Assembly (NCBI GenBank): GCA_021815205.1
Contig: JAKAHD010000001.1
Location: 25,247 to 89,246, forward strand
DNA: 64,000 bases
Origin: a bacterium
Lineage (GTDB): Bacteria; Patescibacteriota; Minisyncoccia; UBA6257; GWB1-50-10
Direction of reading: 5' to 3'
This document shows, in pieces, positions 9,163 through 44,044 of this stretch; position 1 is the stretch's first letter; each line of letters opens with the position of its first letter. The position numbers were made by a program, and so were the translations under genes. The notes under the pieces were generated by a model that had not been told where the DNA came from, searched no databases, and saw only the letters and a program-made list of their open reading frames with translations.

Positions 9163-12100
9163 ATGAACATGGAATTAAAATCAATCGCGATACAACTTGC
9201 CTCTCCCGACGAGGTGCTCTCTTGGTCCAAGGGGGAGGTCACGAAGCCCGAGACGCTGAACTACCGCACCCAACGTCCCGAAAAGGACGGACTCTTCTCG
9301 GAGAGGATCTTCGGTCCCACGAAGGATTATGAATGTTACTGCGGCAAGTATAAAAAAATTCGCTATAAGGGCGTGACGTGCGAAAAGTGCGGCGTCGAGG
9401 TGACGCGCGCCGCGGTGCGCAGAGAGCGGATGGGCCACATTACGCTTGCGACTCCCGTCGTGCACGTGTGGTTCTTGAAGACCGTGCCGTCGCGCTTGAG
9501 TCTGCTTTTGAATATCTCGGTGCCGAAACTCGAGAAGGTGATTTACTATGCCGCCTACATCGTGACGGGCGTGAACGAGGAGAGTAAGAAACGCGCACTT
9601 CAAGATCTTGATCAGGAGTACAAGGCATTGAAATCCGAGCGCCAGATGGATGAGAAGGAGCTGAAGGAACGTGAGAAGGAGATGAAAGAAATTATCGCGC
9701 TCCTCAAGCCGGGTCTCATTCTTACGCAGGACGAGTACTATCGTCTCGCAGAGCGGTTCGGTGACGTGTTCGAGGCCTCCCAAGGCGCGGGTGCGCTCCG
9801 GAAGATTTTAGAAGCGATTGATCTTAAAGCAACCGCGAAAGAGCTCGAGAAGGATCTCACGAAGGTACAGGACGCGAACCGTGAGAAGCGGCTTCTCTTG
9901 CGTCTTCGGCTCATAAGATCCATGATCCGCGCGCATGTGCGTCCCGAATGGATGATTATGACCGTGCTCCCCGTGCTGCCGCCGGACTTGCGGCCGATGG
10001 TCGCATTAGACGGCGGGCACTATGCGACCGCCGACCTGAATGATCTTTATGGAAGAGTTATCAACAGGAACAACCGTCTGAAAAAGCTTATGGAGCTCAA
10101 GTCTCCTGAGGTTATTATCGTGAACGAGAAACGCATGCTCCAGGAGGCGGTGGATGCCCTCATTGATAATACCGCGCGGCTTGGCAGCCAGCTCTTGTCC
10201 TCAAAACGCAGACCGCTCCGGTCTCTTGCCGACATGCTCAAAGGAAAACAGGGCCGGTTCCGTCAGAACCTGCTTGGAAAGCGCGTTGATTATTCCGGCC
10301 GTTCGGTGATCGTCGTGGGCCCTGAATTGAAGCTCAACGAATGCGGCCTTCCGAAACACATGGCGCTCGAACTCTTCCGGCCGTTCGTTATTAATCGCCT
10401 GATCGAGATGAATTTCGCCTTCAATATCAAGCAGGCGAACCGCCTTATCGAACAGGGGCCGCCCGAAGTTTGGGCGATCTTGGAAGAGGTGATCCGTAAC
10501 CGGCGCGTGCTTTTGAACCGCGCACCGACCCTGCACCGGCTCGGCATCCAGGCCTTCAAACCCGTCTTAATCGAAGACCTTGCGATACGAATCCCTCCGC
10601 TTGTCTGTGCGGCGTTCAATGCCGACTTCGACGGCGATCAGATGGCGGTGCATCTTCCGCTTACGACCGAAGCGCAGTTTGAGGCCGAGACGCTCATGGA
10701 CGCGGGGAAGAATCTTTTGAAGCCCGCAAACGGCGATCCGATCGTGTCGCCGACGCAAGACATGATCTTGGGCGTCTACTTCCTCACGCATATCGTGCCC
10801 GGCGCGAAAGGGGAAGGGAGGACATTCTCGGGACCCGAGGAGGCGATGTTCGCGTACGAATCGGGCGTGATCGCCTTGAATGCCGCGATTAAGGTAAAGA
10901 TGGAGGAGGGGATTATAGAAACGTCCTATGGGCGGATCATCTTTAGTAGTACGCTTCCCCCCGGAACCGCATTCGTGAATACCACGCTTGATAAACAGGG
11001 ACTTTCAAAGCTCATCACCTCAATGATTGAAACGCACGAGATCGAGGAGAGCCGCGAGTACCTTGATAAGGTCAAGGATCTCGGCTTCTTGTACGCCACC
11101 GTTTCTTCGACGACGTGGGGCATGATGGATGCGATCGTGCCGAAGGAGAAGCACGAGATGCTCGCTCGCGCCCGCGAACGTGCCGCGATGGTTGACGCAC
11201 AGTATGAAGAGGGACTCTTGACCGATGAGGAACGGAAGAGCAAGGTTATCGGAATCTGGATGAAAGCGCGCGAAGATATCGCGGCGCTCATCCCAAAGGT
11301 GGTCACCGAAGGAAATCCGATCTATTCCATTATAAGTTCCAAAGCCCGCGGCAGCTGGGCGCAGATGATTCAGATGATGGGTATGAAAGGTTTGGTGCAG
11401 GATACGAGAGGCGAGACGATGGAACTTCCCGCAACCTCCTCGTATAAAGAAGGGTTGGGGGTGCTTGAATACTTCATTACGACGCACGGCGCGCGCAAGG
11501 GTTCAACCGATACGGCATTGAAAACCGCATCGGCCGGGTACCTTACTCGTCGTCTCGTGGATGTAGCGCAGGACGTATGCATCAATGAAACCAACTGTCG
11601 TGCCGTGAAGGGAATCACCATTCTCAAGAAGGAGGGAGATGCGTTCGGGTACCAGTTCGCGGAGCGTCTATACTCAAGAACCTCACTTTATGATATCCGC
11701 GTTGACCGGAAGATACTCGTACGCGCGGGAGAGATTATAAGCCGGGAAGCCGCAAAGAAAATTCAGGAAGCCGGCATCGAATCCGTCGAGGTGCGTTCCC
11801 CAATCGCCTGCAAGGCGGTCTACGGCATCTGCGCCGCGTGTTACGGGCTTGATCTCGGAAGAAACAAACCGGTGGAGCTCGGCGAAGCCGTTGGTATTGT
11901 CGCCGCGCAGTCGATCGGAGAACCGGGCACGCAACTTACGCTCCGCACCTTCCACATCGGAGGCGTTGCGGGCGTCGATATCACGCATGGACTTCCCCGC
12001 GTTGAAGAGATATTCGAGGCGCGTCCCCCGAAAGGAAAATCGACCCTGAACAAGGTGGATGGCGTGGTATATGACATAGAAGATCGCGGGCTCTCGACGC

Positions 12101-12816
12101 TTATCAAGGTCAAGGAAACCGGCGCGAAGAAGCCATCGAAGAAACGCCGTAAGACGGGATCGGAGGAAGGGAATATAATCGAATATCTTGTGCCCCACGG
12201 CGCGAGCATCTACGTAAAGATCGGAGCTACAGTAACCCGCGGTGAGCAGTTGTACGAGGGTCCGCTCGATATCCGCGAAATTCTCGCGTATCGGGGAGTC
12301 GATGCCGTCATTCATTATATCGTGAACGAAGTGCAGAAGATTTACATTCCGGAAGGAGCGATCATCAACGACAAGCATATCGAAGTGATCGTGCGACAAA
12401 TGCTTTCCCGTGTGACCATCAAGGATCCGGGTGATACCGATTTCATGCCGGGAGAAATCATTGAGAAACAGAAATTCATCGCCGTGAACCGCGCGGCAAA
12501 GCGCGAAAAGAGGCAGGCGTCCCGGGCGGTGCAAAAGATATTTGGGATCACGCGCGTGGCGCTTACCACCGAAAGTTTTCTCTCCGCGGCTTCGTTTCAG
12601 GAAACCGCGCGCGTCTTGGTTGACGCATCCATCCAGGGGAAGACGGACGTGCTCTACGGCCTCAAAGAAAACGTCATCATCGGGAAACTTATCCCCGTAG
12701 GCACGGGCTGGAGGGGATTTCCCGAGGAAGCGCTCGCCGAGTTCAGGGAAAAATTGACAGGGCCGAAAAAGGCCGATACTATGGAGGGCGAGGCGGAAGA
12801 ACACGAGCCGGCATAA
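9163..12816 (+). CDS. rpoC: DNA-directed RNA polymerase subunit beta'
   Basis: RpoC zinc-finger (CGKYKKIRYKGVTCEKCGVEV) and NADFDGD catalytic motif. The likely start is ATG 9163, just after the rpoB stop; the ORF-track start at 9082 overlaps rpoB. Confidence 0.97.
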   Translation: MNMELKSIAIQLASPDEVLSWSKGEVTKPETLNYRTQRPEKDGLFSERIFGPTKDYECYCGKYKKIRYKGVTCEKCGVEVTRAAVRRERMGHITLATPVVHVWFLKTVPSRLSLLLNISVPKLEKVIYYAAYIVTGVNEESKKRALQDLDQEYKALKSERQMDEKELKEREKEMKEIIALLKPGLILTQDEYYRLAERFGDVFEASQGAGALRKILEAIDLKATAKELEKDLTKVQDANREKRLLLRLRLIRSMIRAHVRPEWMIMTVLPVLPPDLRPMVALDGGHYATADLNDLYGRVINRNNRLKKLMELKSPEVIIVNEKRMLQEAVDALIDNTARLGSQLLSSKRRPLRSLADMLKGKQGRFRQNLLGKRVDYSGRSVIVVGPELKLNECGLPKHMALELFRPFVINRLIEMNFAFNIKQANRLIEQGPPEVWAILEEVIRNRRVLLNRAPTLHRLGIQAFKPVLIEDLAIRIPPLVCAAFNADFDGDQMAVHLPLTTEAQFEAETLMDAGKNLLKPANGDPIVSPTQDMILGVYFLTHIVPGAKGEGRTFSGPEEAMFAYESGVIALNAAIKVKMEEGIIETSYGRIIFSSTLPPGTAFVNTTLDKQGLSKLITSMIETHEIEESREYLDKVKDLGFLYATVSSTTWGMMDAIVPKEKHEMLARARERAAMVDAQYEEGLLTDEERKSKVIGIWMKAREDIAALIPKVVTEGNPIYSIISSKARGSWAQMIQMMGMKGLVQDTRGETMELPATSSYKEGLGVLEYFITTHGARKGSTDTALKTASAGYLTRRLVDVAQDVCINETNCRAVKGITILKKEGDAFGYQFAERLYSRTSLYDIRVDRKILVRAGEIISREAAKKIQEAGIESVEVRSPIACKAVYGICAACYGLDLGRNKPVELGEAVGIVAAQSIGEPGTQLTLRTFHIGGVAGVDITHGLPRVEEIFEARPPKGKSTLNKVDGVVYDIEDRGLSTLIKVKETGAKKPSKKRRKTGSEEGNIIEYLVPHGASIYVKIGATVTRGEQLYEGPLDIREILAYRGVDAVIHYIVNEVQKIYIPEGAIINDKHIEVIVRQMLSRVTIKDPGDTDFMPGEIIEKQKFIAVNRAAKREKRQASRAVQKIFGITRVALTTESFLSAASFQETARVLVDASIQGKTDVLYGLKENVIIGKLIPVGTGWRGFPEEALAEFREKLTGPKKADTMEGEAEEHEPA

Positions 12817-19215: not shown

Positions 19216-19257
19216 TCTCCCGAGAGTGTTATGACGCGTCATAACACCCTCGGGAGA
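19216..19257. repeat. Palindrome family A copy 3 (extended 42-bp palindrome)
   Basis: TCTCCCGAGAGTGTTATGACGCGTCATAACACCCTCGGGAGA lies between thrS and miaA. Confidence 0.9.
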
Positions 19258-23400: not shown

Positions 23401-26400
23401 TCACAGCGCCTCCACCCCCTCGCAGATATACTTTGTGTCCCCGTTTTTCCACGAGAGGAAGCCGTCCACGATGACCACCCTGTTCTCCTCCCACACTTCC
23501 GGTTTCTTCGCGAGGAGCTCCGAAAACACAAGGAGCTCGATTGAATTATTTTCGTGGTCTTCGAGCGTTACGAAGAGCATCGGCTGCCCTTTTTTTGTTA
23601 CGATCTTCTTCATGACGCTCACGACGCCCGCCATCCGGAACTTCAAAGATTTTTCACCCTGCTTCGGTACGGAGAGCGCGAATGCGATGGTCTTTGCCTT
23701 GCCGTTCAGTTTCGGCAGATGCTCGCTCATCGGATGGTCGGTGAGGTAGAGTCCTAAAAGCTCTTTTTCCCACCCAAGCATTGTGGCGGTATCGGTTTTT
23801 TCGACGGGACGGAGACGCAACGCCCCGAACGTCGAGACGTTTCCGAAGAGTGAGTTCTGGTTGCTTCCGGAGATTTTTTTTGCGGCCTGGTTGAACTTGA
23901 TGAGCTCCTCGATGTTTGCAAGAAGCGTGCCGCGTTCTACACCAAACGAATCCAACGCGCCGGCTTTTGCGAGACTTTCCAGGGACTTCTTGTTCATATC
24001 CCTGTGATAAAGACGCGAGAGGAAGTTTTGGAGACTGGTATATGCTCCGCCGCGCGCCCGCTCTTCGATAATGGCGTTCACGATGTTCGCGCCGAGATTT
24101 TTGATCGCGAGGAGTCCGAACCGTATTCCAGCTTGCCCCGAATCGGATTGAGGGGGTTGCCCCGCGTGCCCGCCGAAGTTTTGCGAATACTGGGAGCGTA
24201 TCGAAGAGTCTACGGTGAAATCCTGGAAGCTCGAGTTCACGTCCGGAGGCAGTACCTCGATTCGGTGATGCCGCGCCTCGCTCACGAGAAAACTGATACG
24301 CTCCACGTCGGTGCCCGAGACGTTCAGGAGACTTGCCATAAACTCGACGGGATAGTGCGCCTTAAGGTACGCCGTCTCGTAGCTTATCATGGCGTAGCAC
24401 GCGGCATGCGATCGATTGAAGCCGTACCGCGCGAAGGGAGGAAAGAGCTCCCAAATCTTCACGGCGATGCGCTTCTCGATGCCGTTTCTCGTCATGCCCT
24501 CGATGAGTTTTTTCTCCTGTTCGTCAAGGAGACTCTTGATTTTCTTTCCGATTGCCTTGCGGAGCGTGTCCGCCTCGGCGAGCGTGAAACCCGCGAGGTC
24601 GCGCGCGATGCGCATCATCTGTTCCTGATAGATTCCCACGCCGTAGGTCCCTTCGAGGATGGGCTTGAGTTTCGGATGAATGTAGTTTACGGTTTCTCTT
24701 CCGAACTTGCGGTTGATGTACTGCGGAATCAGTTCCATAGGTCCCGGGCGGTACAGCGATACCATTACAATAATGTCCTCAAGGTTGGTCGGCTTCAGCT
24801 CTTTCAGATAGCGGCGCATACCCTGCGACTCGAACTGGAAGATGCCGGTCGTGTCGCCTCTCTGGAAGATTTCGAATGTTGCCGCATCGTCAAGGGGAAT
24901 TGCGTCGATGTCGATCGAGACGCCGTGATATTCCTTCACGAGGCGGAGCGTTTTTTCGATAATGGTGAGGTTCTTGAGTCCCAAGAGGTCCATCTTCAAG
25001 AGCCCAATATCCTCGACACTGTGCCCCTCGAACTGCGTGAGGATCGTCTCTTCTCCTTGCGGCGCGTGCTGGAGCGGTATGAAGTTCGTGAGCGGTTCGG
25101 GGGAAATCACAACGCCGCATGCGTGCACCGAGGCGTGGCGAGCCGTACCCTCGAGTTTCAGTGCCGCGTCGAGGATCTTCTTCGCGTCCGCGTTATCGGT
25201 GTACAGCTTCTTAAGTTCCGGAATTGAGACGATTTCATCCTTCAGAGGAATGTTGAGACCCGTGATGAGCTTCGCGATCTGGTCGCACAAGGCGTAGGGG
25301 TAGCTCATCGCGCGTCCCGCGTCGCGAATTGCCGCGCGCGCCATCATCGTCCCGAACGTGATAATCTGCGCGACGTGGTCCGCGCCGTAGCGCTCGCGGA
25401 CGTAGGCCAAGACCTCGTCGCGGCGCGTGTCCGTGAAGTCCACGTCGATATCGGGCGCCTGGATCCTGTCGGGGTTCAGAAATCGTTCGAAGAGAAGCTC
25501 GTACTTCAGGGGGTCGATGTTCGTGATCCCGAGGATATAAGAAACGATGCTTCCCGCCGCGCTCCCGCGGCCGGGCCCCACGACAATGCCGTGATCCCTC
25601 GCCCACGTAATGTAGTCCTGCACGATAAGGAAGTAGTCGGCGAAGCCGGTTTTCTTAATCACGCCCATTTCCATCTGAAGGCGTTCCCGTACCTCATCCG
25701 TCGTCTTGGGGTATCGCTTACCGATTCGCTCCTCAATGAGATTGCCGAGGTATTCGAATGAATCTTTTCCTTCGGGGAGCGGGAAACGGGGAAGAAACGT
25801 CTTTCCGAGTCCGAGCTGCCAGTTGCACTTCTCCGCGATTTTCCATGTGTGCTCGATCGCCTCGGGAATATGCGCGAAATGTTTTTCCATCTGCTCCGGC
25901 GATTGAAGTGAGAGGTCGAAGCGTTTCAAACTCAGGCGATCCTCGTCGTCGAGTTTGGTGTTCGTCTGCACCGCGAGAAGTATCTCATGCGCGGTCTTGT
26001 CGTCGGGATTCACGTAATGGATATCCTGCGTCGCGACGAGCGGAATACCGAGTTTTTTTCCAAGTGTCATGAGCGGCGCGTGGAGTTCCGGTGCGTGCGG
26101 CTGTACTTCGAGATAATAATCTTCGCCGAAGAGGTTTTGATACCATCGCGCGGTTTCCTCCGCTTCCTGCATTTTTTTTGCCGCGACGAGCCGCCCGATT
26201 TCCCCGGAGAAACATCCCGAGAGACACACAAGCCCCTCGTGGTGTTTTTTGAGAAGCTCCTTGTCAATGCGCGGCTTGTAGTAGAAGCCGTCGAGGTAAG
26301 AGATGGTGACGAGCTTTATGAGATTCTTCCATCCCGTCTCGTTTTTTGCGAGGAGGATTTGATGATAACGCATCTCGTCGATTTTCGGTCGTTTATTGAG

Positions 26401-28645: not shown

Positions 28646-28791
28646 GTAAACCCCAACGTGGCGATCATCTCCGTTCTTGCGGGCGCAGGAGGACTTGTCC
28701 TTCGAAGCCTTATTCTTAATCCAAGAAAACTAATATGTTATCGGTAAACCCCAACGTGGCGATCATCTCCGTTCTTGCGGGCGCAGGAGGA
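28646..28791 (+). repeat. 49-bp direct duplication (GGTAAACCCCAACGTGGCGATCATCTCCGTTCTTGCGGGCGCAGGAGGA) at 28646-28694 and 28742-28790
   Basis: The second copy encodes residues VNPNVAIISVLAGAGG of the truncated RF2. The first copy is out of frame, in the tRNA-Thr/prfB spacer. Confidence 0.9.
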
Positions 28792-29433
28792 GACGATGCG
28801 AAGGACTGGGCGAATAGGCTCCTCCGGATGTACTCGCGCTATGCGGATTTGAGGCATTGGAAGCTCCAGGCGGTAAACGATACGACGATAGAGCTTCGGG
28901 GCGAAGGGGCCTATGAGTGTTTAAAGGATGAGTCCGGCGTACATCGCCTGGTGCGTATCTCGCCCTTCGACGCGAAGAAGCTGCGGCACACTTCGTTCGC
29001 CTTGGTCGAAGTACTCCCCGAATTACCCGCGAATGATGCGGCGCACATCCAGATTCCTGAAAAGGATTTGAAGGTGGAGTTCTCCCGTGCGGGAGGGCCC
29101 GGCGGACAGAATGTGAACAAGGTAGAAACCGCGGTGCGGGTGACGCACCTGCCGACGGGGCTCGTGACATCATCGCGCGCCGAGCGGTCGCAGGCCTCGA
29201 ATCGCGAGAAAGCCCTGAATCTCCTGAAGGCAAAACTCGTGAAGCTCATGGAGGAGAAGCATGAGAAAGAAATCTCGAACCTGCGAACCCGCGTCGCTCC
29301 GGAGTGGGGGCATGAGATTCGTTCCTATGTACTCCATCCCTATAAGCAGATAAAGGATCACAGAACGGGACAGAAGATAAGCAGGGTGGAGGAAGTATTA
29401 GAAGGAAATCTAGATTTGTTAAATGCCAAATAA
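28735..29433 (+). CDS. prfB: Peptide chain release factor 2 lacking N-terminal domain 1 (domains 2-4 only); possibly truncated or pseudogenised
   Basis: The SPF codon-recognition motif (RISPFD), the GGQ motif (GGPGGQNVNKVETAVRVTHLPTGLV) and the AGAGGDDAKDWANRLLRMY block are all present. The product is only 232 aa, about 110-130 residues short of a normal RF2. No frameshift site or N-terminal coding sequence lies upstream. Confidence 0.75.
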   Translation: MLSVNPNVAIISVLAGAGGDDAKDWANRLLRMYSRYADLRHWKLQAVNDTTIELRGEGAYECLKDESGVHRLVRISPFDAKKLRHTSFALVEVLPELPANDAAHIQIPEKDLKVEFSRAGGPGGQNVNKVETAVRVTHLPTGLVTSSRAERSQASNREKALNLLKAKLVKLMEEKHEKEISNLRTRVAPEWGHEIRSYVLHPYKQIKDHRTGQKISRVEEVLEGNLDLLNAK

Positions 29434-40789: not shown

Positions 40790-41428
40790 ATGATCTCTTC
40801 ATTGCTCACATCCCTCGCTTCCTTTGTGAGCGCGGCGATAAGCACGCTCGGCTATCCCGGTATTGCGGTGCTTATGGCGCTCGAATCCGCCGCGACGCCT
40901 CTCCCCTCGGAGCTTATCATGCCGTTCGCCGGCTACCTCGTTTCGACGGGGAGGTTCTCCCTCTTTGGCGTTTCGCTCGCGGGGGCCCTGGGTTCGACAT
41001 TGGGCTCGATTATTGTGTATATGATCGCGCGCTACGGCGGGCGCCCGCTCGTTGAAAAATATGGCAAGCGCATATTCATTTCTCCTGCGCATCTTGAGGC
41101 GGCGGAGATCTTTTTCAAAACACACGGCGTGTCCGCGCTCTTCTTGGGGAGAATAATTCCGGTGGTGCGCACCTATATTTCGATCCCCGCAGGCATCGCG
41201 CAAGCCCCCCTCGGGATATTTACGCTTACATGTTTCGTCGGTTCGTTCCTGTGGTCGCTTCTTCTCGCGTGGGTCGGGCAGATCTTCGGGAACGGGTGGC
41301 ATATCATTACCCCCTACGCGCAGATCATAAACTACTGTATCGGCATCGCGCTCTTCTTTTTAGTGGCGTATTGGTTTTTGAAACGCGTCCTTTCCAGAAG
41401 AGATAACAAGAGAGACCGAGAAGACTAA
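40790..41428 (+). CDS. DedA family membrane protein (second copy)
   Basis: GYPGIAVLMALESAATPLPSELIMPFAGYL...RYGGRPLVEKYGKR canonical DedA block. Confidence 0.85.
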   Translation: MISSLLTSLASFVSAAISTLGYPGIAVLMALESAATPLPSELIMPFAGYLVSTGRFSLFGVSLAGALGSTLGSIIVYMIARYGGRPLVEKYGKRIFISPAHLEAAEIFFKTHGVSALFLGRIIPVVRTYISIPAGIAQAPLGIFTLTCFVGSFLWSLLLAWVGQIFGNGWHIITPYAQIINYCIGIALFFLVAYWFLKRVLSRRDNKRDRED

Positions 41429-41444
41429 AACGTCTCTCCTACGG

Positions 41445-41468
41445 GGTGTTATGACGCGTCATAACACC
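41445..41468. repeat. Palindrome family A copy 4
   Basis: Exact GGTGTTATGACGCGTCATAACACC about 90 nt upstream of the zwf-gnd fusion start. Confidence 0.9.
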
Positions 41469-41557
41469 CTCGATCCCATTCGCCTACCCCCATACCAGAG
41501 CGTACACTCGTGATGTGGGGGGTTTACTTCGGGAGGCGTTCGGTGGATACTAGAGGA

Positions 41558-44044
41558 ATGTATTTATCGAACGAGCAGAACTTCTCCTCTCGAATACCCA
41601 CGATCGTAGTCGTGATGGGTGCGACGGGCGATCTGATGACGAAGAAGATTACCCCCGCGCTTTTCGGTCTGTTCCGGAAAGGCGCGCTTCCCGCCATGTT
41701 TCGCGTCGTGGGATTCGCGCGCCGCGATCTCACGCACAACGAGTTTCAAGAGCGCGGCAGGGAGATTCTCGAGAACTATTACCCGCGTGAAGCGCATACG
41801 AAAGCCGCCCGGGATTTTCTCGGCCGCTATTTCTACGAGCGAGGTATGTTCGAGAGGAAAAAGGACTACGAGCGGCTGAAGCGCGCGCTCGGGAAGATCG
41901 ACGACGAGTGGGGAATGTGCTCGAATAAGATTTTTTATCTTGCGGTGCCTCCGCGGCGGTATCCCGAGATTGCGAACCATCTCGCGGCAACGGGACTTTC
42001 GAAGCCGTGCGGAGGCCCCGACGAGGGGTGGACCCGCGTCATCGTGGAGAAGCCGTTCGGAAGCGATGAAAAAAGCGCAAAGGCGCTGGACGCGCTCCTC
42101 GGAAAACTCTTCCGCGAGGAGCAGATCTACCGTATTGATCACTATCTCGCGAAAGAGATGCTCCAAAATATCCTCACGTTCCGCTTCGCAAACAATCTTT
42201 TTGAGACGAACTGGGGAGGCAATCTCATTGAGCGCATGCATATAAAACTTCTCGAATCGATCGGCGTGGAGGATCGTGGGGGATTTTACGATGGGGTTGG
42301 TGCGCTCCGCGACGTAGGGCAGAACCACCTGCTCCAGATGCTCGCGCTTGTGACGATGGAACGCCCCGAGACATTCTCCGCTTCCGCCATCCGCGCGGCG
42401 CGCGCAAGAATTCTCGAGACGCTCGAGATTCCTTCCGCGAAAGACGTGCGCAACAATACATTCCGCGCGCAGTATGAAGGATATCGCGCGATTAAGGGCG
42501 TTGCTTCCAATTCGAATACGGAGACCTACTTCAAGGTGCGGGCGCGGCTCCGCGCGCCGCGATGGAGGGGAGTGCCGATCACAATGGAATCGGGAAAACG
42601 TATGGGAAAGCCGTTGAAGGAGATCGAGATCGTATTCCGCCATCCCAGCCCATGCCTTTGTCCCGAAGGAGAGACGCATTATGCAAACTCCCTCGTCATA
42701 CATCTCGAACCAAAAGAAGGAATCACGATCCGTTTTTGGTCCAAGAAGCCGGGACATACCATGGAACTCGAGAGACGGACGTTCGATTTTGCATTCAGAG
42801 AGAAGGATGCCCATTCCCAGTACACCGAGGAGTATGAAAAGCTCCTTCTCGATTGCATCGCAGACGACCAGACACTTTTTGTGTCAAGCGAGGAAATCAA
42901 GGCGATGTGGAACTTTATTGATCCGATCGTCGCGGGATGGGAGAAAGGTGCGGTGCCGCTTGTGCGCTATGTTCCCGGGAGTGCCGACATCTCGGAGCAC
43001 GCCGAGGAAGCGATCCGAAGCCGCGAAACGTCCGGAAGGATCACGACGCGAGAGATTGGCGTGGTGGGACTCGGGAAAATGGGATCAGGGATCGCGCTCC
43101 AGCTCGTCGAGAAGGGATGGAAGATACACGCATGGAACAGAACCCCCGAGGTTACGCGGCGGCTCGCACGCGAGGGACTTCACGGCGTATATTCGATCAA
43201 GGAACTTGTCGCCGCGCTTCCCGCGCCGCGCGTGGTATGGCTCATGGTTCCTTCCTTCGCTAAAGCTGCGAATGGCAAGCCCGAGGAAAAGCCGGTTGAT
43301 GAGATGCTCTTCGGGAAAGAAGGGCTCGCGCGTTTTTTGAAACAAGGAGACATCGTAGTGGATGGCGGCAATTCCTTTTTTGAGGATTCCGTGCGGCGTG
43401 CGGCGCGCCTCAAAAAGCTCGGTATCCGATTCGTGGACGCGGGGGTTTCGGGAGGCCCTTGGGGCGCGCGACACGGCGCGTCCATTATGGTGGGAGGAGA
43501 GAAAAAAGATTTTGAGTATCTCAAACCGCTTCTCGAAAACCTTTCGGTGCGGGGTGGGTACGGGTACATGGGAAAATCGGGCGCCGGGCACTTTGTAAAA
43601 ATGGTGCACAACGGCATCGAATACGGCATGATGCAGTCCTTGGCGGAAGGGTTCTCGGTGATCAAGAAATCGAAGCTCGTTTCTGATCTCCGCGAAGTTG
43701 CGCGAGTATACGGAAATGGAAGTGTGATCACCTCGCGGCTCGTGGACTGGCTCCAGGGCGGGCTTGCACAGTACGGAACATCGTTGCGGGGGGTATCCGG
43801 CTCCGTGGCGCATACGGGAGAAGGAGAATGGACCGTGAAGACGGCAAAGAAACTCAAGGTGCAAACCCCCGTTATAAAGGACGCATTCGACTTCAGAGTG
43901 CGTTCGGCCGCACACCCGAGTTATACGGGTCAGATCCTTTCGATGCTCCGGAATCAGTTCGGCGGCCACTCGCTCATTTCAGAATCAGGAAAGAAGAAGA
44001 AAAGGAAACGATCGGGCAATCGCGCCCGCGGAACGCGGCTGTAA
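41558..44044 (+). CDS. zwf: Fused glucose-6-phosphate dehydrogenase (N, ~485 aa) and 6-phosphogluconate dehydrogenase, short decarboxylating Gnd/YqeC-like (C, ~330 aa)
   Basis: G6PD motifs GATGDLMTKK and RIDHYLAKE. After a ~20-aa linker come the 6PGDH Rossmann VGLGKMGSG and the GMMQSLAEGF / GAGHFVKMVHNGIEYG blocks. The reading frame is uninterrupted for 844 codons. Confidence 0.85.
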   Translation: MYLSNEQNFSSRIPTIVVVMGATGDLMTKKITPALFGLFRKGALPAMFRVVGFARRDLTHNEFQERGREILENYYPREAHTKAARDFLGRYFYERGMFERKKDYERLKRALGKIDDEWGMCSNKIFYLAVPPRRYPEIANHLAATGLSKPCGGPDEGWTRVIVEKPFGSDEKSAKALDALLGKLFREEQIYRIDHYLAKEMLQNILTFRFANNLFETNWGGNLIERMHIKLLESIGVEDRGGFYDGVGALRDVGQNHLLQMLALVTMERPETFSASAIRAARARILETLEIPSAKDVRNNTFRAQYEGYRAIKGVASNSNTETYFKVRARLRAPRWRGVPITMESGKRMGKPLKEIEIVFRHPSPCLCPEGETHYANSLVIHLEPKEGITIRFWSKKPGHTMELERRTFDFAFREKDAHSQYTEEYEKLLLDCIADDQTLFVSSEEIKAMWNFIDPIVAGWEKGAVPLVRYVPGSADISEHAEEAIRSRETSGRITTREIGVVGLGKMGSGIALQLVEKGWKIHAWNRTPEVTRRLAREGLHGVYSIKELVAALPAPRVVWLMVPSFAKAANGKPEEKPVDEMLFGKEGLARFLKQGDIVVDGGNSFFEDSVRRAARLKKLGIRFVDAGVSGGPWGARHGASIMVGGEKKDFEYLKPLLENLSVRGGYGYMGKSGAGHFVKMVHNGIEYGMMQSLAEGFSVIKKSKLVSDLREVARVYGNGSVITSRLVDWLQGGLAQYGTSLRGVSGSVAHTGEGEWTVKTAKKLKVQTPVIKDAFDFRVRSAAHPSYTGQILSMLRNQFGGHSLISESGKKKKRKRSGNRARGTRL

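Follow-up and report, generated by a model that had tools for sequence, protein, structure and literature searches.

A conserved fusion of glucose-6-phosphate dehydrogenase and short-chain 6-phosphogluconate dehydrogenase, predicted to be bifunctional, in Patescibacteria

A fusion of glucose-6-phosphate dehydrogenase (G6PD, encoded by zwf) with 6-phosphogluconate dehydrogenase (6PGDH, gene gnd) has been described from the diatom Phaeodactylum tricornutum (protein 54663 / XP_002183714; Kroth 2008, PMC2173943; Stover 2011, PMC3148214), and in 2011 no second example had been found by its authors in the nr database (PMC3148214). Here we describe a gene of this kind from a patescibacterium (Minisyncoccia; UBA6257; GWB1-50-10), which lies in a stretch of 64,000 nucleotides, hereafter the window (positions 25,247 to 89,246 of contig JAKAHD010000001.1, assembly GCA_021815205.1). 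The diatom protein joins the same two enzymes, that is steps 1 and 3 of the pentose phosphate pathway's oxidative branch, in one reading frame with a short spacer; like the bacterial one, it is known from sequence only and has at times been annotated away or labelled as G6PD only. It differs in being eukaryotic, reportedly restricted to one diatom lineage, and based on a disputed gene model. From a comparison with its published description only, we infer that the bacterial fusion is independent in origin, because the bacterial family appears to derive from a zwf→gnd operon of the candidate phyla radiation (CPR).

Fusions of G6PD with 6-phosphogluconolactonase (6PGL, gene pgl) have arisen several times independently (PMC3148214). 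The enzymes of this group (Plasmodium GluPho, those of Giardia and Trichomonas, and vertebrate H6PD) resemble the window protein in that G6PD is fused to another enzyme of the oxidative branch, but their partner is the lactonase of the consecutive step (Glucosamine_iso, PF01182), whereas here it is a decarboxylating dehydrogenase. No lactonase domain was found in the fusion polypeptide by Pfam or NCBIfam, and since this domain defines the group, the window protein is not a member of it. The second half is comparable to the stand-alone short-chain tetrameric 6PGDHs of Gluconobacter oxydans (10GW/6XEQ), Gluconacetobacter diazotrophicus (6VPB) and Mycobacterium tuberculosis (Gnd2, 8IHE/9IJB), with which it aligns from end to end and has in common the lone helical hemi-domain, the set of catalytic residues and the RX2FGXH motif; unlike them, it is covalently joined to a G6PD of 490 residues. 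The closest sequence relatives are split zwf→gnd(→pgl) clusters of CPR bacteria (such as L003, L020, L026, L032, L036 and L037; L-numbers denote retrieved loci or contigs, each examined over ±10 kb), which have the same gene order but encode two polypeptides. In a full-text literature search, a Zwf-Gnd fusion from CPR or other bacteria was nowhere described, and such fusions are unmentioned in recent papers on short-chain 6PGDHs (bioRxiv 10.64898/2026.01.21.700892; PMC8900737).

The fusion gene and the parts of its product are arranged as follows (window coordinates; aa, residues of the protein).

41558..44044, plus strand: zwf-gnd fusion gene, an uninterrupted open reading frame (ORF) of 828 codons plus stop
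41609..42169, plus strand: N-terminal NAD(P)-binding domain of G6PD (G6PD_N), aa 18-204; Pfam PF00479, E = 2e-56
42173..42997, plus strand: C-terminal catalytic domain of G6PD (G6PD_C), aa 206-480; Pfam PF02781, E = 3e-81
42986..43051, plus strand: junction, aa 477-498 (terminal helix 477-492, tether 493-498), as predicted by AlphaFold2 (AF2) secondary structure and local confidence (pLDDT)
43052..43546, plus strand: Rossmann domain of 6PGDH (NAD_binding_2), aa 499-663; Pfam PF03446, E = 1.5e-44
43586..43975, plus strand: single all-helical hemi-domain of short-chain 6PGDH, aa 677-806; Pfam PF00393 at aa 677-786
43976..44041, plus strand: C-terminal tail rich in Lys/Arg, aa 807-828, containing the run KKKKRKR and of low pLDDT

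A preliminary description of this DNA, made from the sequence, had counted 829 residues; the ORF is uninterrupted as stated there, and the correct length is 828, the earlier count having taken in the stop codon. The open frame extends from 41510 to 44044 on the plus strand (844 aa counted from a GTG at 41510), and an upstream ATG at 41513, in the same frame, is the start of the public gene call of 843 aa. ATG 41558 is favoured over these upstream starts because homologs have their N-terminus 5-13 residues ahead of the conserved IPT(I/V)xV(L/F)GATGDL segment.

Both halves passed curated NCBIfam models. The Zwf half scored 468.4 bits with TIGR00871 (zwf; curated cutoff 400.6), and the Gnd half scored 308.4 bits with TIGR00872 (gnd_rel; cutoff 297.2) and 330.2 bits with NF007161 (cutoff 271). 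The long-chain gnd models were not matched at their thresholds by the Gnd half (TIGR00873, 191 bits vs. a cutoff of 427), and PF00393 aligned only over model positions 1-116 of 290, which indicates a non-duplicated helical hemi-domain. These results bear out the view that the ORF encodes a single-polypeptide Zwf-Gnd fusion, and that its second half is a decarboxylating dehydrogenase of the short type. A search of the Protein Data Bank (PDB) by sequence matched residues ~10-490 to G6PDs (best E = 6e-96) and residues 499-804 to short-chain 6PGDHs (6VPB, E = 3e-54); aa 499-806 align end to end with the 332 residues of 6VPB, for which the Gnd half gave E = 1e-56.

The residues expected for catalysis and substrate binding are in place in each half, and those scored for conservation are kept in at least 40/41 fused homologs. 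The G6PD half carries G21ATGDL26 (the GxxGDL fingerprint), R55-R56, E164KPFG168 and, just N-terminal of the G6PD_C domain, R192IDHYLAKE200. H195, K199, H257 (in GQNHLLQ) and K347 are invariant in 41/41 homologs, and D194 and E200 are each kept in 40/41. We take the RIDHYLGKE-type peptide to provide the Asp-His and Lys substrate and catalytic residues, as in the L. mesenteroides enzyme, and H257 to be the catalytic His, counterpart of His240 in that enzyme; R55 presumably occupies the position of the arginine that contacts the 2'-phosphate in G6PD.

The Gnd half carries G504LGKMG509, N527-R528-T529, N605, S631GG633, T759 and R780. K681, H684, N685 and E688 lie inside GAGHFVKMVHNGIEYG and, together with S631, are invariant in the 41 fused homologs. 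On motif alignment, K681, E688, S631, H684 and N685 presumably correspond to K183, E190, S128, H186 and N187 of the sheep enzyme. All three peptides quoted in the preliminary description (RIDHYLAKE, VGLGKMGSG and GAGHFVKMVHNGIEYG) were present in the protein.

In short-chain tetrameric 6PGDHs, the RX2FGXH motif on the C-terminal helix completes the substrate site of the neighbouring subunit (bioRxiv 10.64898/2026.01.21.700892). The window protein has this motif as R798-N-Q-F801-G802-G803-H804, in which R798, F801, G802, G803 and H804 are invariant and N799 and Q800 vary. Considering that this helix would complete a neighbouring active site, and that G6PDs are obligate dimers, we infer that the fusion protein, Gnd module included, must oligomerise. 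As for the cofactor, an Asn-Arg-Thr turn confers NADP+ specificity on 6PGDH, and Asp at its first position leads to the use of NAD+ (PMC8900737). The turn after beta-2 of the Gnd half is N527-R528-T529, with Asn in 36/41 fused homologs and Asp in 4/41; 6VPB and 6XEQ, which are short-chain enzymes of NAD+ type, carry Asp-Arg there, and the difference predicts a preference of the window enzyme for NADP+ rather than NAD+. Because of this turn and of R55 in the G6PD half, both halves are predicted to use NADP+.

Two further features of the protein vary within the family. A loop insertion of 10 residues (aa 568-577, window 43259-43288) lies in the Gnd Rossmann domain and is absent from 93% of the aligned homologs; other, longer insertions occur at this site in a few relatives, and the model has low confidence in this loop. 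The tail SLISESGKKKKRKRSGNRARGTRL follows the conserved FGGH and ends the protein. Basic tails of 2-29 residues, with 39% K+R, are found across the 41 fused homologs, and that of the window protein is among the longest; an association with nucleic acid or membranes is possible.

The junction is short and structurally constrained. The peptide crossing it includes AEEAIRSRETSGRITTREIGVVGLGK, and at ~42980-43055 there is no in-frame stop or frameshift, nor any start-like context. An AF2 monomer model, built on an alignment of 41 sequences, had a mean pLDDT of 85.4 and a pTM of 0.63, a value too low for the position of one half relative to the other to be relied on. In the model a helix spans residues 477-492, 493-495 are the sole junction residues with pLDDT below 50, and the Gnd half opens with its first Rossmann strand at 499-503. 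Foldseek superposed the G6PD half on complete G6PD chains (1DPG and 6E08, TM 0.88-0.89 over ~485 columns, with 0.89 for 1DPG) and found no PDB chain covering both halves. Residues 477-492 are thus predicted to be the terminal helix of the G6PD fold itself, leaving a free tether of ~6 residues, aa 493-498. A linker of ~20 residues had been proposed; a short linking segment does exist, but most of it would be this C-terminal helix. The spacing from P473 to E499 is 22-28 residues in 37/41 fused homologs, and the sequence in between varies.

The fused architecture is widespread in a limited set of lineages. Nine contigs of 50-200 kb, with NCBI and ENA as sources, carry the identical protein (the 843-aa call), and other genes of the window recur in further samples. 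In a collection of 5.8 billion proteins, at least 120 protein clusters at 90% identity share the architecture; the best 120 are all 764-848 aa long with all four Pfam domains, and the named clusters among them belong to Patescibacteria (Taylor-, Wolfe-, Kaiser-, Portnoy- and Sungbacteria, and Minisyncoccia). A HMMER scan of 1.84 billion representatives at 50% identity gave 12 full-length and 7 partial junction-spanning fusions, down to 37% identity, below which ordinary G6PDs of ~470 aa were ranked; the Pfam domains were confirmed in the two most distant full-length representatives tested. Using a stop-free-frame test and frame-aware tblastn, with single high-scoring segment pairs across the junction, we verified the single-ORF fusion in 20 GTDB species genomes, which belong to CPR lineages and to high-GC Coriobacteriia. 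Chloroflexota, Bacteroidota, Ignavibacteria, Eisenbacteria, Hydrogenophilaceae and further phyla also gave apparent fusions, which were rejected, as tblastn showed separate gnd→zwf genes, and the long open frames in L047 and L075 proved to be chance frames of high-GC DNA.

The fusion had been called unusual. This holds when all bacteria are considered, but it cannot be called rare in the lineage to which it belongs; it is conserved in Patescibacteria/CPR and in some Coriobacteriia, and the diatom case had already been published. Zwf-Gnd represents a family of considerable size, so far unrecognised and restricted to certain lineages, with a single analogue in eukaryotes. Other architectures of G6PD were also encountered among the database proteins P0237, P0259, P0266 and P0136: ankyrin-G6PD-6PGL of 1114 aa, G6PD-6PGL of 720 aa, a partial 6PGL-G6PD of 652 aa, and a CPR-like G6PD of 868 aa with a C-terminal region of ~420 aa that has no Pfam match.

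Three arrangements were found among the retrieved loci: fused zwf-gnd, adjacent separate zwf→gnd, and separate gnd→zwf. The second occurred, among the sampled loci, only in CPR-like genomes; the third, often followed by pgl or opcA, occurred in every other sampled phylum (Chloroflexota, Bacteroidota, Ignavibacteria, Terriglobia, Elusimicrobiota and others). In bootstrapped neighbour-joining trees on a query-anchored alignment, all zwf→gnd sequences, fused and split, fall into a single clade (100% bootstrap). Eight split loci lie at its base, and in 90% of replicates (82% when only the Zwf half is used) all fused genes group to the exclusion of these loci. Resolution is lower when only the Gnd half is used, which gives the same broad grouping when properly rooted; the 0% bootstrap for the zwf→gnd clade in the first Gnd-half tree was a rooting artefact, since the outgroup L061 carries a CPR-type gnd. 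Four fusions from high-GC (64-69%) Coriobacteriia/Actinomycetes form a clade at 100% and are nested with the CPR fusions at 100%. They come from metagenome-assembled genomes (MAGs) on contigs of up to 705 kb (L009, L012, L013 and L017, match at 10001-12390 in each) and match at 50-53% identity, which suggests horizontal transfer of the fused gene between CPR bacteria and Actinomycetota.

The outgroup locus itself (L061:10001-15126, from a Nitrospirota MAG) has a gnd of CPR type, 45% identical and nested in the CPR Gnd clade, with a zwf of only 33% identity ~1.9 kb downstream, followed by pgl; it looks like a mosaic operon, possibly from gene replacement.

In three of the split loci both genes are in one frame (L003:4831-5040, L020:11297-11521 and L022:3441-3656). 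At L003 the junction reads ...EKASVIV-TAG-RRT-M-QKTIGIIGLGKMG, so that a single in-frame TAG separates zwf from gnd and a change in this one stop codon would convert the split form into the fused one or the reverse. These loci look like snapshots of fusion or fission by one stop-codon change, with sequencing errors as another possible source. The fusion probably arose in a zwf→gnd operon of CPR type, through loss of the zwf stop codon and of a tiny spacer, with some later fissions or repeated fusions; the fused gene would then have spread within Patescibacteria and into some Coriobacteriia, in the latter case probably by horizontal transfer.

The explanation that we favour, and hold to be probable as a whole, is that the ORF is a genuine gene of CPR-operon origin for a bifunctional Zwf-Gnd enzyme; the gene itself is real, and a bifunctional product is almost certain in view of the domains, motifs and distribution described above. 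The N-terminal 490 residues would form a complete G6PD, converting glucose-6-phosphate to 6-phosphoglucono-delta-lactone with formation of one NAD(P)H, and the short-chain 6PGDH that follows the tether would convert 6-phosphogluconate to ribulose-5-phosphate and CO2 with a second NAD(P)H. In between, the lactone may hydrolyse spontaneously or through the action of an unlinked enzyme. The fusion would fix the 1:1 co-expression and the co-localisation of two NADPH-forming steps in a reduced genome, with no true channelling, which is the most economical reading considering that steps 1 and 3 share no intermediate.

Several points weigh against this explanation. The two steps are not consecutive and the kinetic gain from fusing them is not obvious. 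For every member of the family, the activity of both halves, the choice of cofactor and the oligomeric state are deduced from sequence, and the pTM of 0.63 leaves the arrangement of the halves uncertain. The Gnd half alone separates fused from split loci poorly in the neighbour-joining trees, so that fusion and fission events cannot be counted with confidence. Moreover, post-translational cleavage has been suggested for at least some of the diatom fusions (PMC2173943).

If the prediction is correct, the family provides a natural single chain that makes two NADPH per glucose-6-phosphate and is built from a dimeric and a tetrameric module. It raises questions of enzymology, namely the quaternary structure, the kinetic gain from fusing non-consecutive steps and the dispensability of the lactonase. 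The series of split, in-frame split and fused loci documents gene fusion by loss of a stop codon, together with a probable transfer between CPR bacteria and Actinomycetota. There is also a consequence for annotation. The fused proteins are named in public databases only as 'glucose-6-phosphate dehydrogenase', a label borne by hundreds of proteins of CPR bacteria and Coriobacteriia, and for this reason metabolic reconstructions of these reduced genomes will score 6PGDH as missing and the oxidative branch as incomplete, though one gene encodes both dehydrogenases.

Among the alternatives, the one that survives best, even if we regard it as unlikely, is that the fusion accompanied the loss of a dedicated lactonase, the lactone being handled spontaneously near the second active site or by intrinsic hydrolysis. 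In its widest form this would mean that the fused lineages have lost the lactonase genome-wide and that Zwf-Gnd runs a two-enzyme, lactonase-free branch yielding 2 NADPH per glucose-6-phosphate, with the lactone opening spontaneously or on the enzyme between the tethered sites; reduced genomes would in this way have evolved a minimal version of the pathway, and we consider this version equally doubtful. We looked for pgl with hidden Markov models (HMMs) built from pgl genes of Bacteroidota and from pgl-like ORFs of CPR bacteria, and with Pfam on every large ORF. No lactonase was found in the whole 64-kb window, in agreement with the earlier statement that none is adjacent to the fusion gene, nor in the 10 kb beyond the right edge. 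The fusion gene stands alone in the window. No conserved neighbour able to substitute for the lactonase was found at the fused loci, where recurrence was limited to response regulators of generic type, an IMPase-like protein and ABC ATPases, at 3-4 loci.

A divergent pgl adjoins zwf/gnd in 5/14 split CPR loci and in 0/21 fused loci (Fisher p = 0.006, ±10 kb); split and fused loci are phylogenetically structured, so these are not independent events and the adjacency of pgl to split rather than fused loci is suggestive only. The same comparison also tells against a loss of the lactonase, as 9/14 split loci likewise have no adjacent pgl. In addition, the survey covered ±10 kb per genome, so that pgl may lie elsewhere, and nothing in the polypeptide, whether an additional domain or an insertion, could act as a hydrolase. 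The divergent pgl-like genes of CPR bacteria are the following.

L020:12350-13078, divergent CPR pgl-like gene
L026:12144-12881, divergent CPR pgl-like gene
L032:4542-5285, divergent CPR pgl-like gene
L036:12036-12737, divergent CPR pgl-like gene
L037:9175-9990, divergent CPR pgl-like gene
L069:1158-1865, divergent CPR pgl-like gene, additional to the five of 14 split loci

The family has the motifs LLSGGS and G(I/V)GxDGHTAG(I/M)(M/L)P(F/Y). A gene of this kind passes the PF01182 threshold, and its best NCBIfam match is TIGR01198 (pgl), at a score under that cutoff; automated annotation may therefore miss these genes as pgl.

A second possibility, which we judge improbable, is that the fusion is a polyprotein-like precursor, cleaved into separate Zwf and Gnd and serving co-expression only. 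The cleavage suggested for at least some metabolic fusion proteins of diatoms (PMC2173943) speaks for it, as does the poor conservation of the junction sequence. On the other hand, the exposed tether would measure only ~6 residues and contains no conserved cleavage motif, and the near-constant linker length (22-28 residues in 37/41 homologs) suggests a structural role. We know of no bacterial precedent for such cleavage.

It is very improbable that the C-terminal half is a different beta-hydroxyacid dehydrogenase fused to Zwf, of the HIBADH or tartronate-semialdehyde reductase type. The NAD_binding_2 fold is common to these enzymes and both gave weak matches, but these were far below their cutoffs (tartro_sem_red, 92 bits vs. 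340; HIBADH, 70 vs. 292), while gnd_rel and NF007161 were passed; moreover, GAGHFVKMVHNGIEYG and RX2FGXH, which are specific to 6PGDH, are invariant, and the closest solved relatives of this half are all 6PGDHs. Finally, a single base error could mimic a fusion where, as in L003, L020 and L022, same-frame genes are split only by stops, but the chance that the fusion is an assembly or sequencing artefact merging two adjacent genes, the concern raised in the preliminary description, is negligible, given the uninterrupted junction in the window, the identical 843-aa call on nine contigs from ENA and NCBI, the recurrence of other window genes in further samples, and the same fused frame in 20 divergent species genomes and at least 120 clusters.

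Upstream of the fusion gene lies a palindrome, which belongs to a set of repeats.

41444..41469: perfect 26-nt palindrome GGGTGTTATGACGCGTCATAACACCC, in the 129-nt spacer between a VTT-domain gene (stop at 41428) and the fusion gene
41-62, 628-649, 19226-19247 and 41446-41467: exact copies of the 22-nt core GTGTTATGACGCGTCATAACAC, all intergenic

The palindrome begins 16 nt past the stop of the upstream gene and ends 89 nt before ATG 41558. Its 22-nt palindromic core, with a central MluI site, has four exact copies in the window, with 0 expected by chance. The flanks of the copies differ; the stem is lengthened to 12-22 bp in 3/4 copies and is of 10 bp in the copy at 628, and the folding energies of the four range from -14 to -44 kcal/mol. 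An exact 24-mer also occurs inside longer palindromes of four unrelated metagenome contigs of lower GC content (L082-L085). No sigma-70-like promoter was found near the palindrome or upstream of the fusion gene, and there was no terminator call and no T-tract after the palindrome. The palindrome had been assigned to the promoter region: a repeated palindrome does lie upstream, whereas the promoter is unproven. The element is a hairpin of generic kind, not specific to the fusion gene; it might serve as a hairpin repeat or be bound by a protein, and a link to the regulation of this gene is unproven.

The rest of the window is ordinary housekeeping DNA, with rpoB/C, nusG, dnaE, thrS, miaA, prfB, ftsEX, obg, dcd, ychF and scpAB, and an Rfam scan of it returned two tRNAs only. 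The release-factor ORF at 28735-29433 codes for just 232 aa, with a PCRF match that starts at model position 101; this would fit the programmed +1 frameshift usual in prfB, the N-terminal part being encoded in a different frame. A transposase of the IS110/IS116/IS902 family (PF02371) lies among the housekeeping genes at 60088-61323, and the same arrangement was found in a second sample (L087).

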